From contig JAIXVU010000001.1 of NCBI GenBank assembly GCA_027482685.1, positions 11 to 64,010 on the forward strand: a stretch of 64,000 nucleotides of DNA, written 5' to 3'. Shown here in pieces: positions 1-31,369 of this stretch. The stretch is from a bacterium. Its GTDB lineage: Bacteria > Patescibacteriota > Minisyncoccia > Phycocordibacterales > UBA5272. The first letter of the stretch is position 1. Every line of letters starts with the position of its first letter. The translations under genes were made by a program, and so were the position numbers. The notes beneath the pieces were generated by a model. It had not been told where the DNA came from and did no database searches. It saw nothing but the letters and a program-made list of their open reading frames with translations.

Positions 1-63
1 TAGGGATCGAACCTACGACCAACGCGTTAACAGCGCGCTGCTCTACCGCTGAGCTATCACGGA
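1..63 (-). tRNA. tRNA-Asn (anticodon GTT), truncated at window edge
   Basis: Reverse complement reads TCCGTGATAGCTCAGCGGTAGAGCAGCGCGCTGTTAACGCGTTGGTCGTAGGTTCGATCCCTA. It has an acceptor 5' strand, D-arm GCTC/GAGC, anticodon stem GCGCG/CGCGT with loop CTGTTAA, and a T-arm GTAGG-TTCGATC-CCTAC. The 3' acceptor strand lies outside the window. Confidence 0.85.
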
Positions 64-5591: not shown

Positions 5592-7463
5592 CTAACCAAT
5601 AAAAAAATGAAGAGGGTTAATTATCGGTTTACCGTCATAGACAACTCTTTTAATTCTTTCACGAAGCGCTTGGTTGTGTGACCACTCAGACTCCTTAATG
5701 TGAATAAAAAGCAACGTTACTCCACGACCTTGCTCGAACCATTCTATGACATATGTGCCGAGCTCTTCTTCTATTTTATGTTTCATTTGATCTTGTAGAT
5801 TATCAAACGATGCTTTGATAACAGTGTAGTATGGTGGAAGTAAGAAACGCTCTCGTTCAGAAAGCAGTGTATCAAACACCTCACGAAACGATGGTGAGAT
5901 GAGTTGCTTAATGACTGGCAGATTTTTCATACGAGTTTGTAATATCATACGACCGCCACGACTACCATCACTTTTTTGTTTAACTTTTTCTGCCATCTCA
6001 GTTACAAGAGTCAGCACCTTCTCATCGTTTCTATATTCAGGAAGTGCAAAGAGTGAGTCAAGAGAAAGTATAACAATACCATCAGCATGAGTTACAACAT
6101 TATGAGCCATCTCAGTTCCAATTAATACACCATACTTGCTCTCAGTCCATTCTTTATATGTTTTTTTTATTTTCGCTCGTGTTGGTGTACGCTCACCATC
6201 AATAACAAAGAGAGGAATTCCTAGTCTTTGTAACTCTTCCTCTATTCCTGTTGTTGCGATACCGAGAGTTGTCATACGCCACCCTCCGCAATGTTTACAT
6301 GAGAGCGTGCTATCATCATCTAGTCTAATAATATTCTCACACCCATGACATACGTAGGTTCTAACTCCACCGATTTTGTGGAGAACATATGGGCGGTTAC
6401 ATGTAGAGCAGGTGAAGAGTAGCCCGCAGTCAGAACATACGGTCGTTGGGTACATTCCTTTTCTATGTGAGTAAAAGAAGTAATGACCGCTTTCATTGAG
6501 TTGCATCATGTGTAATAACGAGAGAGACTGTTTGCTCAGATAGGGACTGCTTGTTTTATTCTCATCTATCATAGGTACTATTGTTATGCCGGCATCATTT
6601 CTATATTGCATAGGCATGACCTCATTTGCATCACGTGTTTTATGTAGGAGATGCGCGTTTAGTGAGAGCATATGAGAACCAAGAAGGCAGGTAGTACTTG
6701 TTCCCTTACATAGCTCCATCAAAACAAATCTCATATCATACCCACCATCTCCATGTGTGTAATAGTAGTGGCTGTGCTCACGTTCAATAATGACTAGACC
6801 AAGATCAACTCTTACCCACGGGAGAAGTGAAGGGGTAGAAAGGATTAGCAGTGGGTGTTGATTAGTAAATAGTTCGTTTTGTGCTTCTGTATATTGTTTG
6901 TCTGTAAGTCCGCTATGAAGTGGGATAACATATTCATCTATTCCGCGAGACAGTTCATTCTTTGCACATTCAAGATCAGTGATCGTAGGGAAGAATATAA
7001 CGATTGACTGTTTCTTAGAAAAAGCTTCGCGTACTGTTGTTTTATAATGAGTGATGCGATGTGCGTAACTTTGTTCAAGAAGAAGGATTTCAAATCCACG
7101 AGGATTAATTTGTGGTTCTATTTTGGTAATAGAAGCAAATGATCTCTCTGAAATGAGGTCATAGAGTATAGTTCCAATTGGTCGAAGTAAGTAGGATGAC
7201 GTATACGAAAGTGCATTCCATAATTTTTGATGCAAGAATTCTTTTGTGATTGTTTTTGAAACTTTTTTGAGCCCAAATGATGCGTGACGGAGTGACTGAC
7301 GTTCTTCTTCTGCTTTTTCTGATGTAAGAACAAGAGCGCGCGAAATACGTCTCTTTATAGTTATCTCCACTAAGTCACCTGCGTGTATATCATCCCTTCC
7401 AAAGTAGGAAAGTTCTTCGTATGGAATGCCGCTTGCAAGTGGGGCTACAGTTACGACGCGCAT
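5592..7463 (-). CDS. priA: Primosomal protein N' (PriA) homologue with degenerate Walker A/B motifs
   Basis: PriA-type Cys-rich zinc ribbon (CSDCG...CSTCN...CHGCE...CKHCGG). N-terminal 3'-DNA-binding/winged-helix region. At the expected Walker A position the sequence reads LLLEQSYAHRITHY (no GxGKT). At the DEAH-box position it reads VIIEREHS. Confidence 0.75.
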   Translation of the reverse strand: MRVVTVAPLASGIPYEELSYFGRDDIHAGDLVEITIKRRISRALVLTSEKAEEERQSLRHASFGLKKVSKTITKEFLHQKLWNALSYTSSYLLRPIGTILYDLISERSFASITKIEPQINPRGFEILLLEQSYAHRITHYKTTVREAFSKKQSIVIFFPTITDLECAKNELSRGIDEYVIPLHSGLTDKQYTEAQNELFTNQHPLLILSTPSLLPWVRVDLGLVIIEREHSHYYYTHGDGGYDMRFVLMELCKGTSTTCLLGSHMLSLNAHLLHKTRDANEVMPMQYRNDAGITIVPMIDENKTSSPYLSKQSLSLLHMMQLNESGHYFFYSHRKGMYPTTVCSDCGLLFTCSTCNRPYVLHKIGGVRTYVCHGCENIIRLDDDSTLSCKHCGGWRMTTLGIATTGIEEELQRLGIPLFVIDGERTPTRAKIKKTYKEWTESKYGVLIGTEMAHNVVTHADGIVILSLDSLFALPEYRNDEKVLTLVTEMAEKVKQKSDGSRGGRMILQTRMKNLPVIKQLISPSFREVFDTLLSERERFLLPPYYTVIKASFDNLQDQMKHKIEEELGTYVIEWFEQGRGVTLLFIHIKESEWSHNQALRERIKRVVYDGKPIINPLHFFIG

Positions 7464-28981: not shown

Positions 28982-29713
28982 TTGCATATGGATAGACATC
29001 CCGAAATTATCGAGACGACACCAACGATTGGCAACGTGCAAGAACTCCCTCAGGATGTTCCAACACTTCAGGCTGAGGTATTGCGCCTACGAGAGGAAGT
29101 GAGACGTTTACAAGAAGAGGCACTCACAGATAGTCTCACAGGGTTACCTAACAGACGTTACGCTGACCAAGAGATAAAAACTCTTTTCGCCCAAAGAGGG
29201 AGAAATGAGATAGACTCATTCAGTGTTATTGCATTTGATCTAGATGGTTTCAAGGCGATCAATGACAAAGGTGGACACCTCGCAGGGGATGAATGTCTCA
29301 AGATTGTCGCAGAGGAGATCCGGAATACATTACGAACTACCGACTTCTTCGCACGCGAAGGAGGGGATGAGTTTCTTATTTTCCTACGTAACGAGCCACA
29401 TGCAACAACAGTTGCTGAGAATGTGCTCAAGAGAATGAATGACAACGTAACCACAAGGTTACGCGAGTATACAAAGGACGAAACGTCCTGGATATCAGCA
29501 AGTATTGGTCTTGTAACGATAGCAGATGATAGTAGCTTGCGAGGTATCACATCATCAAAGGATGTGCTTACTCAGGCAGACTATGTGAGGTATGTGGTAA
29601 AGGCAGCTGGTAAAAAAGGAGTCTTCACCCTCGAGCAAGCCCGCGAGGTAGACACAGACGGCAGATACTGGAAGCAATTTGTGGAGAATAAAATAGGGAA
29701 GGTCTCAGTGTAA
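28982..29713 (+). CDS. Diguanylate cyclase (GGDEF domain) with N-terminal coiled coil
   Basis: LTGLPNRRY, DLDGFKAINDKGGHLAGDECL and the canonical active site REGGDEFL. Confidence 0.85.
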   Translation: MHMDRHPEIIETTPTIGNVQELPQDVPTLQAEVLRLREEVRRLQEEALTDSLTGLPNRRYADQEIKTLFAQRGRNEIDSFSVIAFDLDGFKAINDKGGHLAGDECLKIVAEEIRNTLRTTDFFAREGGDEFLIFLRNEPHATTVAENVLKRMNDNVTTRLREYTKDETSWISASIGLVTIADDSSLRGITSSKDVLTQADYVRYVVKAAGKKGVFTLEQAREVDTDGRYWKQFVENKIGKVSV

Positions 29714-29810
29714 GTACTATTTAGCAAAAGTGGTTTAAATAGATGTCTATTTTATCTCAACAAAGTTGCAATGTAGTTTGCTGGTAAATATCATTGGATA
29801 AAAAAGAACA

Positions 29811-29840
29811 CACCCCGAACAGCGTCGGGGGTGGGGTGGA
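29811..29840. terminator. GC-rich hairpin (ccccgaac-agcg-tcgggg core) between convergent genes
   Basis: Located between the GGDEF stop and the 3' end of the 29856 ORF. Confidence 0.45.
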
Positions 29841-29855
29841 CCTTGGTGCGATGTG

Positions 29856-30198
29856 TCAGTCATCACTTAGGATATGAAATGAGTGACATGACCTCGCGAT
29901 GAAGGGGATCTCACCCTTTAGTTGTGCGAGCTTACTCTCGGCAACATCGCGTTGCTTGTAGCAGGCGACAACCTGAAGTTCGCCTCGTAGCATCGCAGTT
30001 ACAATAGCGCACTCGAGATCTCGCATCGTGATATCGAGTATCCTCGCAACACGCTCAGCGTGTATGGTGAGGAAGATTATCCTTTCATTTCTGAAGCAAC
30101 GACATACAAAGAGTGCTATACGGACTTCAGGTGGCTCTTTTTGTTGTTCTCTGATATCTGAGGCGGGCCTATGCACCTTATCTGGAGTAGCATACATC
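29856..30198 (-). CDS. Hypothetical protein (about 114 aa), GC-rich with SD
   Basis: ATG chosen at MYATPDK, preceded by GGGAGAAG; the longer ORF starts on TTG. Transcribed divergently from the RhuM-Fic gene. Confidence 0.45.
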
Positions 30199-30309
30199 AG
30201 ATCTTCTCCCGTAATGTAATGAGCAATGCACAAATACTACAACGATTATTGCCCCATCGTCAACTATAGCGGGCAAGGGTATTATTACTTTATCCACAAA
30301 ATATTGAGG

Positions 30310-30338
30310 TTGTTCTATTGATGTAGAACACTTGTTCT
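30310..30338. promoter_or_regulatory. Palindromic operator candidate TGTTCTA-N5-TAGAACActtGTTCTA (GAAC-N4-GTTC, Cheo-box-like)
   Basis: GTAGAACACTTGTTCTAC is a perfect 8+8 inverted repeat 15 nt upstream of the RhuM-Fic ATG. The core matches the Gram-positive LexA box GAAC-N4-GTTC. Confidence 0.5.
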
Positions 30339-30352
30339 ACTAGACTATATAT

Positions 30353-31369
30353 ATGGCAAAGAAAAAACAAACATCAAAAACAACTACAATTTTTAATAAC
30401 AACGTCATTGTCTATCAGACAAAGTCAGGAGCACTCGAGCTAAAGGGTGATTATACAGGTGAGACAGTGTGGGCAACACAGGCGCAGATAGCAGAGGTGT
30501 TTGGTATAGAACGATCCGTTATAACTAAGCACATTAGAAATATTTATAAAGAAGATGAATTAAATGAGAAAGCAACATGTGCAAAAATTGCACAAGTTCA
30601 AATTGAAGGAAAACGTAGAGTTGAACGTGAAGTAGAGCACTATAATCTTGATCTTATTATTTCCGTTGGTTATCGAGTTAATTCAAAGACAGCCACCTCC
30701 TTTCGTCAGTGGGCGACAAGGACGCTTCGTGAACATTTAACTAAAGGGTATACACTGAATAAGAAAGTTATCCTCGAGAACTACGATCAATTTATTAAAA
30801 ATGTGTCCGAAATACAAGCGCTACTTCCGGAGCATGTGACGCTTGACCCAAAGGGAATACTTGATCTAGTAAAAGAATATGCAACAACATGGTCCAAGCT
30901 TGATGCGTATGATAAAGATGAGCTCACCTCAGAAGGTGTCACAAAGAAGAAAATTAAAATTAATGCAGATGAGCTTTCTACTACTGTAGAAACATTCAAA
31001 ACAGAACTTATAAAAAAAGGTGAAGCTACAGAAATTTTCGCACAAGAACGAGCCTCTGGAAATCTAGAAGGTATATTAGGGAATGTGATGCAGTCATTTG
31101 GTGGTTCTGATGTGTATAAGACACTGGAAGAAAAGGCGGCACACCTTCTCTATTTTATGGTGAAGAATCATCCATTTGTAGATGGGAATAAACGCTCAGG
31201 AGCTTTTACTTTTATCTGGTTCTTGAGAAAATCAGGAGTTCGTGGAGCTAAGAACATCAATCCATCCGGACTGACCGCTATTACACTTCTCATTGCAGAA
31301 AGTGACCCAAAGCATAAAGAAAAGGTAGTTGCCCTTGTTGTAGAACTTCTCAAAACAAAAGTGAAATAA
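30353..31369 (+). CDS. RhuM-family N-terminal domain fused to Fic/Doc (death-on-curing-like) domain
   Basis: RhuM signature VWATQAQIAEVFGIERSVITKHIRNIY...YNLDLIISVGYRVNSKTATSFRQWATRTLREH. C-terminal Doc-type motif HPFVDGNKRSGAF. Confidence 0.75.
   Translation: MAKKKQTSKTTTIFNNNVIVYQTKSGALELKGDYTGETVWATQAQIAEVFGIERSVITKHIRNIYKEDELNEKATCAKIAQVQIEGKRRVEREVEHYNLDLIISVGYRVNSKTATSFRQWATRTLREHLTKGYTLNKKVILENYDQFIKNVSEIQALLPEHVTLDPKGILDLVKEYATTWSKLDAYDKDELTSEGVTKKKIKINADELSTTVETFKTELIKKGEATEIFAQERASGNLEGILGNVMQSFGGSDVYKTLEEKAAHLLYFMVKNHPFVDGNKRSGAFTFIWFLRKSGVRGAKNINPSGLTAITLLIAESDPKHKEKVVALVVELLKTKVK

Follow-up and report, generated by a model that had tools for sequence, protein, structure and literature searches.

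Fusions of RhuM and DOC domains, and their association with restriction-modification loci, were described by Anantharaman et al. 2013 (PMC3710099). BifA of Streptococcus equi subsp. zooepidemicus, which combines RhuM and Fic, has been studied as a virulence factor acting on host moesin and needs its Fic histidine for activity (PMC6529018). According to Castro-Roa 2013 and Cruz 2014, as cited in that paper, phage P1 Doc phosphorylates EF-Tu and halts translation, and a lysine in place of the second glycine of the Fic motif is what makes it an EF-Tu kinase. A regulatory site has been reported as well: B. subtilis LexA bound TCGAACAAATGTTCGA in an electrophoretic mobility shift assay, 96 nucleotides (nt) upstream of a 'death-on-curing (rhuM)' gene (COG3943) from a human gut metagenome (Cornish et al. 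2014, PMC3998124). Here we analyse a 64-kb stretch of DNA from a member of the Patescibacteria (contig JAIXVU010000001.1; the whole stretch is called the window), in which a gene for a RhuM/Fic protein of 338 amino acids (aa) is preceded by a perfect palindrome with the core GAAC-N4-GTTC. We regard the palindrome as very probably the operator of a repressor, set in a leaderless promoter, and LexA is the best candidate for the protein that would bind it, a plausible assignment to which we give about an even chance. The family, the fusion of RhuM with Doc and a LexA site ahead of a rhuM gene can all be found in the literature, so what is gained here is a further well-placed example and no new principle; the palindrome together with the RhuM-Doc gene is plausibly a new example of something already described. 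Loci retrieved for comparison are given L numbers where they have to be told apart; L030, L041 and L049, which recur below, are in records JACDEV010000012, VMHB01000001 and CALKUP010000015.

The earlier note on this DNA had proposed that a RhuM N-terminus is fused to a Doc-type HPFVDGNKR motif, and the open reading frame (ORF), the Pfam matches and the motif as read in the translation all agree with it. The RhuM profile PF13310 matches at aa 74-142 (E=1.5e-24) and is covered over the first 69 of its 252 positions, as expected of the fused form, and the Fic profile PF02661 matches at aa 233-291 (E=3.6e-11). PADLOC PDC-S23 (PDLC04965) is matched by aa 15-335 over profile positions 4-325 of 327, with E=4.3e-115. 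PADLOC ranks PDC-S23 as a 'candidate' defence system, and a literature search found no mention of PDC-S23. A total of 7,998 homologues were retrieved at E<=1e-5. The best of them come from Patescibacteria assemblies, with 66-88% identity across 88-100% of the protein, and those with a source name are called 'virulence protein RhuM/Fic/DOC family protein', 'prophage maintenance system killer protein' or similar. Homologues of 40-44% identity were found on plasmids of Vibrio, Aeromonas, Pseudomonas, Legionella and Shewanella. Among viral contigs the fusion was not found, only proteins with the Doc domain alone. By these matches the gene is a member of an already known, widespread family, with which it shares the full-length architecture and the Doc-type motif; residues H273, P274, D277, G278, N279, K280 and R281 are invariant across 40 aligned homologues.

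The genomic company of the family is variable. Across 81 RhuM/Fic loci no neighbouring gene family occurs in more than six, and no conserved partner was found. The most frequent neighbours are, by our reading of their sequences, HsdR-like (six loci), classical Fic (five), GIY-YIG (four), ArsR-like (four) and HsdM-like (three) proteins. Such occasional siting beside type I restriction-modification genes agrees with the published association (PMC3710099). The gene of the window differs from its family in standing alone amid housekeeping genes, with no defence island, and in having a putative palindromic operator, which most members lack.

Doc of the Phd/Doc type II toxin-antitoxin system of phage P1 resembles the window protein in its Fic fold and in the motif, of which the window protein has a HxFx(D/N)(A/G)NKR variant. 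PHROG 577, 'Doc-like toxin', matches the C-terminal part with E=5.6e-17, and the top matches of a PDB sequence search are Doc proteins, though weak ones (E=0.009-0.2; 9vzc with E=0.0088, 3k33 with E=0.015). The differences are that the protein reaches only 35.6 bits against the NCBIfam profile TIGR01550 (DOC_P1), under the curated cut-off of 38.65, that about 210 residues including the RhuM domain precede the Doc-like region, where matches begin at about aa 212-216, and that no Phd/YefM-type antitoxin gene is adjacent or conserved in the 81 loci. BifA shares the order of an N-terminal RhuM and a C-terminal Fic part, a likeness drawn by description only; it differs in having no described role in the physiology or regulation of its own bacterium.

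The upstream region of the gene was aligned with those of six relatives whose proteins are 81-88% identical. Four of the six (L088, L091, L002 and L089) share one geometry with the window, namely a -35 hexamer, a spacer of 16-17 nt, a -10 hexamer, 6 nt and the ATG; in L092 and L095 the upstream region is longer, and the alignment at the -10 is not clean. The consensus promoter scan did not report the putative -35 of the window, because its two hexamers jointly match only 8 of 12 consensus positions. The palindrome, GTAGAACACTTGTTCTAC, consists in a strict reading of 8-nt perfect arms, GTAGAACA and TGTTCTAC, with a 2-nt centre, and its GAAC-N4-GTTC core lies at 30326..30337. The palindrome begins on 30323, which is also where the -35 hexamer ends, and its remaining bases, 30324..30340, are the entire 17-nt spacer. 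This is a classic repressor position, at which a bound dimeric protein would occlude the core promoter. The palindrome and a third half-site copy, TGTTCTA, 5 nt further upstream had both been pointed out in the earlier note and are present as described there, but the gap between palindrome and ATG measures 12 nt instead of 15. In L002, L089/L090 and L091, the place of this TGTTCTA reads CCGTTCTA, directly before the -35 hexamer.

Among 64 gene starts in the window, 29 have TAnnnT ending 5-10 nt before the start codon, compared with 7 that have a Shine-Dalgarno-like sequence. Because the -10 hexamer of the RhuM/Fic gene sits 6 nt before its ATG, and in view of these counts, its mRNA is most likely leaderless. 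An RNA hairpin in a 5' leader was considered as the principal explanation of the palindrome and rejected, since the transcription start deduced in this way coincides with the ATG itself.

A check of 80 genome loci and the six closer relatives showed that the palindrome is not conserved. In 887 kb of related Patescibacteria loci, 11 perfect GAAC-N4-GTTC sites occur, nine of them inside ORFs. Only two are intergenic, and each of them precedes a RhuM/Fic start codon, by 18 and 28 nt. Out of 137 kb of intergenic DNA, about 5 kb fall within 60 nt upstream of RhuM/Fic genes, so the probability that two out of two intergenic sites lie at such promoters is about 0.0015. In L030 the layout is TTGACC, AGTGAACTATAGTTCACT, TATAAT, and the spacer is again occupied by a perfect 18-bp palindrome, placed as in the window; the L030 protein is 63% identical to that of the window, and the flanks are unrelated. 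A Rex-type operator was tried for the L030 site and rejected, for the spacing is GTGAA-N6-TTCAC, and Rex boxes have an N4 spacing. Three of the nine sites inside ORFs arise from the Fic motif, through its DGNKR codons: in L031:3792, L062:3801 and L080:3774 the DGNKRS codons (GGGAACAAGCGTTCC) make a perfect GAAC-N4-GTTC, so scans for LexA boxes will strike inside these genes.

GAAC-N4-GTTC is the LexA signature in Gram-positive-type lineages. Compared with the site of Cornish et al. (PMC3998124), the likeness is a GAAC-N4-GTTC box upstream of a COG3943 RhuM-family gene; the difference is that the window reads tAGAACacttGTTCTa where that site reads TCGAACAAATGTTCGA, that it would lie inside the core promoter of a putatively leaderless Patescibacteria gene, and that it is known here from sequence alone. 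LexA homologues were found less than 3 kb from the RhuM/Fic gene in L045 and L067, and LexA does exist in Patescibacteria. We collected 80 related Patescibacteria LexA loci (L096-L175), and a TTCGG-N5-7-TTCGG repeat was found in the LexA promoter of 64. The consensus of this promoter-operator module is TTGAC, TTTCGG-N6-TTCGG, TTATAAT. A weight matrix was built from 57 distinct modules and scanned over 2.36 Mb, where it finds exactly one other site, in the RhuM/Fic promoter of L049 (L049:2922-2959, 31.7 bits). By this match the RhuM/Fic gene of L049 carries a presumptive LexA-gene operator, of another sequence than the palindrome of the window, and this adds weight to LexA as the candidate. In two close relatives a Y-family (IMS) polymerase gene (L091:198-1481) or its remnant (L095:410-637) lies directly upstream of the RhuM/Fic gene, which gives a link to a gene of SOS type. 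The polymerase promoter of L091 has only CCGTTCTATAGAAT, which shares CCGTTCTA with the RhuM/Fic promoters of L002, L089 and L091.

We propose that the RhuM/Fic gene is a single-protein toxin-like or defence module under LexA, an explanation that as a whole stands about halfway between acceptance and doubt. The N-terminal winged-helix part may be a DNA-binding or sensor domain, and for the C-terminal Doc-type Fic domain the HPFVDGNKR motif predicts a protein kinase like P1 Doc. A sigma-70-type promoter (TTGATG, 17 nt, TAGACT, 6 nt, ATG) would give a leaderless mRNA, and a dimeric repressor on the 18-bp palindrome would shut out RNA polymerase, so that the toxin stays off. With LexA as the most likely repressor, the kinase would be switched on by DNA damage, also by damage that active phages or mobile elements cause, and growth would be arrested. 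Of this scheme, the domains, the motif, the family, the position of the palindrome and, by comparison with relatives, the promoter geometry are established; kinase activity with its target, the leaderless start, repression and the identity of the repressor are predictions. In E. coli, the growth-arresting toxins of tisB, symE and dinJ-yafQ are silenced by LexA and freed upon DNA damage. The logic proposed here is the same; the toxin families and mechanisms are unrelated, and the window locus differs in having no evident antitoxin gene or antisense RNA. If LexA does silence a Doc-type kinase, DNA damage or phage attack would be tied directly to translation shutdown in these episymbionts, and the candidate defence gene PDC-S23 would gain a testable trigger. 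A readable promoter-operator pair is also useful because Patescibacteria have genomes of about 1 Mb and few known regulators. A wider reading is possible, though we hold it tentatively and would sooner expect it to be wrong: in bacteria of the candidate phyla radiation, single-gene RhuM-Doc modules may have come under LexA-type operators of differing sequence several times, each time independently, so that a translation-arresting kinase would be a recurrent output of the response to DNA damage in these minimal genomes, as an SOS-triggered dormancy or abortive-infection switch. The operators concerned would be the GAAC-N4-GTTC palindrome in the window, in L030 and perhaps in L041, and the TTTCGG-N6-TTCGG direct repeat in L049.

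A number of observations weigh against the LexA explanation. The palindrome is absent from all six closest relatives and from about 85 of 88 family promoters, and the further lineages with the site are L030, which is clear, and L041, which is ambiguous, as its core lies at the centre of a 36-bp hairpin that adjoins TATAAT and could be a terminator. No E. coli-type or Cheo-type LexA box was found upstream of five plasmid homologues (four proteobacterial, one clostridial). The core match to the Gram-positive LexA (Cheo) box that the earlier note reported is real, but the flanks are AGAAC...GTTCT as opposed to the CGAAC...GTTCG of the B. subtilis type, that is, A...T and not the consensus C...G. 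The retrieved Patescibacteria LexA operators are direct repeats with an 11-bp period and not GAAC-N4-GTTC; every gene in this set is fused or linked to a DNA methyltransferase, and the set speaks neither for nor against a GAAC-N4-GTTC-binding LexA in the window's lineage. Neither lexA, recA nor uvrA was found in the 64-kb window by Pfam, by neighbourhood or by tblastn, for which the queries were LexA from E. coli and B. subtilis and RecA from E. coli; dinB is likewise absent from the window. On the side of the protein, the AlphaFold model is poor (mean predicted local distance difference test score, pLDDT, of 55), the alignment being too shallow, and kinase activity, target and toxicity are predictions for its close relatives as well. 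The SOS or damage-inducible control suggested in the earlier note is made plausible by the comparative and published evidence, and is held back by the differing LexA operators and by the lack of lexA, recA and uvrA from the window. Because the palindrome is missing in the closest relatives and LexA boxes are missing at the plasmid homologues, LexA control, if real, would be sporadic within the family.

Of the other explanations, the one that survives best is that the palindrome is a 'private' operator, bound by some repressor that is not LexA and whose gene lies elsewhere in the genome, which we consider improbable without dismissing it. Its place in the promoter spacer would suit any dimeric repressor, the LexA genes retrieved from Patescibacteria bear operators of the direct-repeat kind, and the close relatives keep a single CCGTTCTA by the -35 hexamer in place of a LexA-type dyad. 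These points have to be set against the LexA signature of the core, which recurs at two more RhuM/Fic promoters with unrelated flanks. They also have to be set against the binding of LexA in vitro to a site upstream of a rhuM gene (PMC3998124) and the LexA-gene-type operator of L049.

Slightly less probable still is that the palindrome has no function and is a by-product of a local 11-bp duplication or of chance in an AT-rich promoter. The region can indeed be read as three 11-bp units, each starting with TGT (TGTTCTAttga / TGTAGAAcact / TGTTCTActag), and the lack of conservation in the six closest relatives is what would then be expected. The count in the window is no help against it, since GAAC-N4-GTTC occurs three times where 0.96 are expected, with at least three in 6 of 100 shuffles, which by itself is not significant, and the two further sites are within ORFs. 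There are 23 perfect palindromes with 8-nt arms in the window against about 5 expected; on reading the list, many of the others are GC-rich hairpins like those found after genes, whereas 30323..30340 is AT-rich and lies in the proposed spacer. The 18-mer has no second match in the window at up to two mismatches. Chance is nevertheless a poor explanation of a perfect 8+8 palindrome that fills the spacer, of the same design arising independently in L030, and of the siting of both intergenic GAAC-N4-GTTC sites in 887 kb at RhuM/Fic promoters.

Autorepression, in which the protein's own N-terminal winged helix would bind the palindrome, is judged unlikely. Toxin-antitoxin loci are commonly autoregulated, the N-terminal part has a weak Pfam match to the phage Rha regulator, and a helix-turn-helix (HTH) with a wing is the confident part of the model, which is limited to aa 41-110 with a pLDDT of about 80 (helices 43-50 and 54-66, strands 76-85 and 88-97). 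The distribution of HTH variants does not follow that of the palindrome, however. The HTH segment of the window protein is identical in L088, L091, L092 and L095, which lack the palindrome, whereas L030, which has it, carries the HTH variant of L002 and L089, which do not, its HTH segment being the same as that of L002; the variant in L041 is a third one. In addition, k-mer enrichment over 83 family promoters gave only -10 boxes and terminator tails and no shared upstream motif. That the divergent 113-aa ORF is the partner of the gene, as antitoxin or as a regulator that binds the palindrome or both, which the earlier note had suggested and for which the divergent arrangement with 155 nt of common control region speaks, is very improbable, because its four homologues never adjoin a RhuM/Fic gene and none of the 81 RhuM/Fic loci has one as neighbour, the promoters of the homologues lack the palindrome, the ORF has no family match and no antitoxin or HTH fold, and its own features point to a separate insertion.

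Table 1. Features at and around the RhuM/Fic gene, in positions of the window.
Feature	Position	Strand	Basis
RhuM/Fic/DOC family gene	30353..31369	+	338-aa ORF; Pfam PF13310 and PF02661; PADLOC PDC-S23
Perfect palindrome GTAGAACA-ct-TGTTCTAC, proposed repressor operator	30323..30340	.	sequence read; alignment with relatives
Third half-site copy TGTTCTA, abutting the -35 hexamer	30311..30317	+	sequence read
Putative -35 hexamer TTGATG	30318..30323	+	aligns with TTTACA of relatives, at equal distance to the ATG
Putative -10 hexamer TAGACT, 6 nt before the ATG	30341..30346	+	aligns with TACACT/TAGAAT of relatives
Predicted HTH in the N-terminal domain (aa 43-66, AQIAEVFGIERSVITKHIRNIYKE), with a beta-hairpin wing after it (aa 76-97)	30479..30550	+	AlphaFold
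Fic/Doc domain core (aa 233-291)	31049..31225	+	Pfam PF02661
Doc-type active-site motif HPFVDGNKR (aa 273-281)	31169..31195	+	sequence read directly
Perfect match to the DnaA-box consensus, TTATCCACA, in the interval between the divergent promoters	30290..30298	+	9-mer scan
Promoter-like site of the 113-aa ORF	30263..30234	-	promoter scan
Divergent 113-aa ORF, apparent small foreign insertion	29856..30197	-	113 aa from ATG, or 125 aa from TTG at 30233
Terminator-like hairpin of the 113-aa ORF	29830..29813	-	terminator scan

The divergent ORF is present and oriented as the earlier note had it, with its end corrected from 30198 to 30197, and the description of its region as GC-rich is accurate (46-53% GC in 200-nt windows, compared with 33-42% for the RhuM/Fic gene). 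Searches of Pfam, NCBIfam, PADLOC and PHROG gave no match for it. Its model has a pLDDT of 62 and gave a weak ClpS-like match (E=0.03), which we take as uninformative. Its only homologues are four, with 53-63% identity, and in three of these four loci as read (L084, L085 and L086) the homologue lies about 80 nt from a tRNA 3'-end repeat (CCTACTCGCGGAG) that resembles an att site. Unlike the host genes, the ORF has a Shine-Dalgarno sequence and a higher GC content. With these features and the att-like repeats of its relatives, it looks like the cargo of a small mobile insertion, separate from the RhuM/Fic gene. The five members of this family of about 113 aa (window 29856-30197(-), L084:781-1122, L085:680-1021, L086:364-822 and L087:483-827) have invariant C32, C34, C63, C79, C104 and H105, and a conserved VVACYKQRDVAE...PF..(S/P)CHSF tail.

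The DnaA-box 9-mer TTATCCACA has two copies in the window against 0.63 expected. On the minus strand, the copy between the divergent promoters precedes the -35 of the 113-aa ORF by 26 nt. Patescibacteria LexA genes have this 9-mer too, in the form TGTGGATAA, as a conserved element of their upstream regions: TGTGGATAA(C), the consensus of the DnaA box, is common to their promoters and stands about 6 nt ahead of the -35 (e.g. L109:1690-1770 and L218:1600-1720). The operators of these LexA genes (L096-L175, L218-L227) are of two types, TTTCGG-N6-TTCGG before TTATAAT, or TTTCTA-N5-YTTCTA before TAAT, placed in the spacer. As direct repeats they fit xTTC-N7-xTTC, which resembles the alphaproteobacterial LexA box.

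Patescibacteria LexA was found fused in frame to a DNA methyltransferase, in proteins of about 525-633 aa (L045:3860-5459(-), L067:1-994(-) and L096-L175, e.g. L109:1771-3345). The fused LexA domains retain the AAG/EP cleavage site and the context of the Ser/Lys dyad. Where LexA is unfused (196 aa), a gene for an 832-aa methylase begins 26 nt downstream (L218:1721-4835). To our knowledge, such a linkage of LexA and methyltransferase has not been described. A different LexA-like domain occurs in L041:47-2080, which encodes a 677-aa protein with a P-loop ATPase region (GGPGTGKS) and a C-terminal LexA-like S24 peptidase domain. This gene is followed by two small ORFs, the second of which we take to be HNH-like from its sequence, and then by the RhuM/Fic gene.

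The window consists of ordinary chromosomal DNA from a bacterium with a small genome. Among its genes are fmt, def, mreB, frr, proS, mreC, a penicillin-binding protein gene, greA, aspS, mraZ, rsmH, ftsI and a photolyase gene, as well as genes for a DsbA-like protein, a GGDEF protein, an extracytoplasmic function (ECF) sigma factor and ribosomal proteins, and ychF, alaS, rpoA, grpE-dnaK-dnaJ, scpAB and murG. The GGDEF gene named in the earlier note as flanking the RhuM/Fic gene was confirmed by Pfam at 28982..29713. The 'accessory island' of that note fits only in that the neighbourhood of the RhuM/Fic gene differs in nearly every genome; the surrounding genes in the window are housekeeping ones. 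A scan of the whole window with Rfam gave a single match, the tRNA at 1..63, and the GC-rich region 29800..30200 is therefore no known RNA. Many other genes of the window look leaderless, with a -10 hexamer 6-9 nt upstream of the ATG. Upstream of the genes starting at 7463(-), 7651, 9694, 21634, 28273 and 31455, leaders rich in CCCTAA/CCCTAG stand in place of a Shine-Dalgarno sequence, for example ccagcccctagtccctaaaccctaacctctagccctt before ychF.

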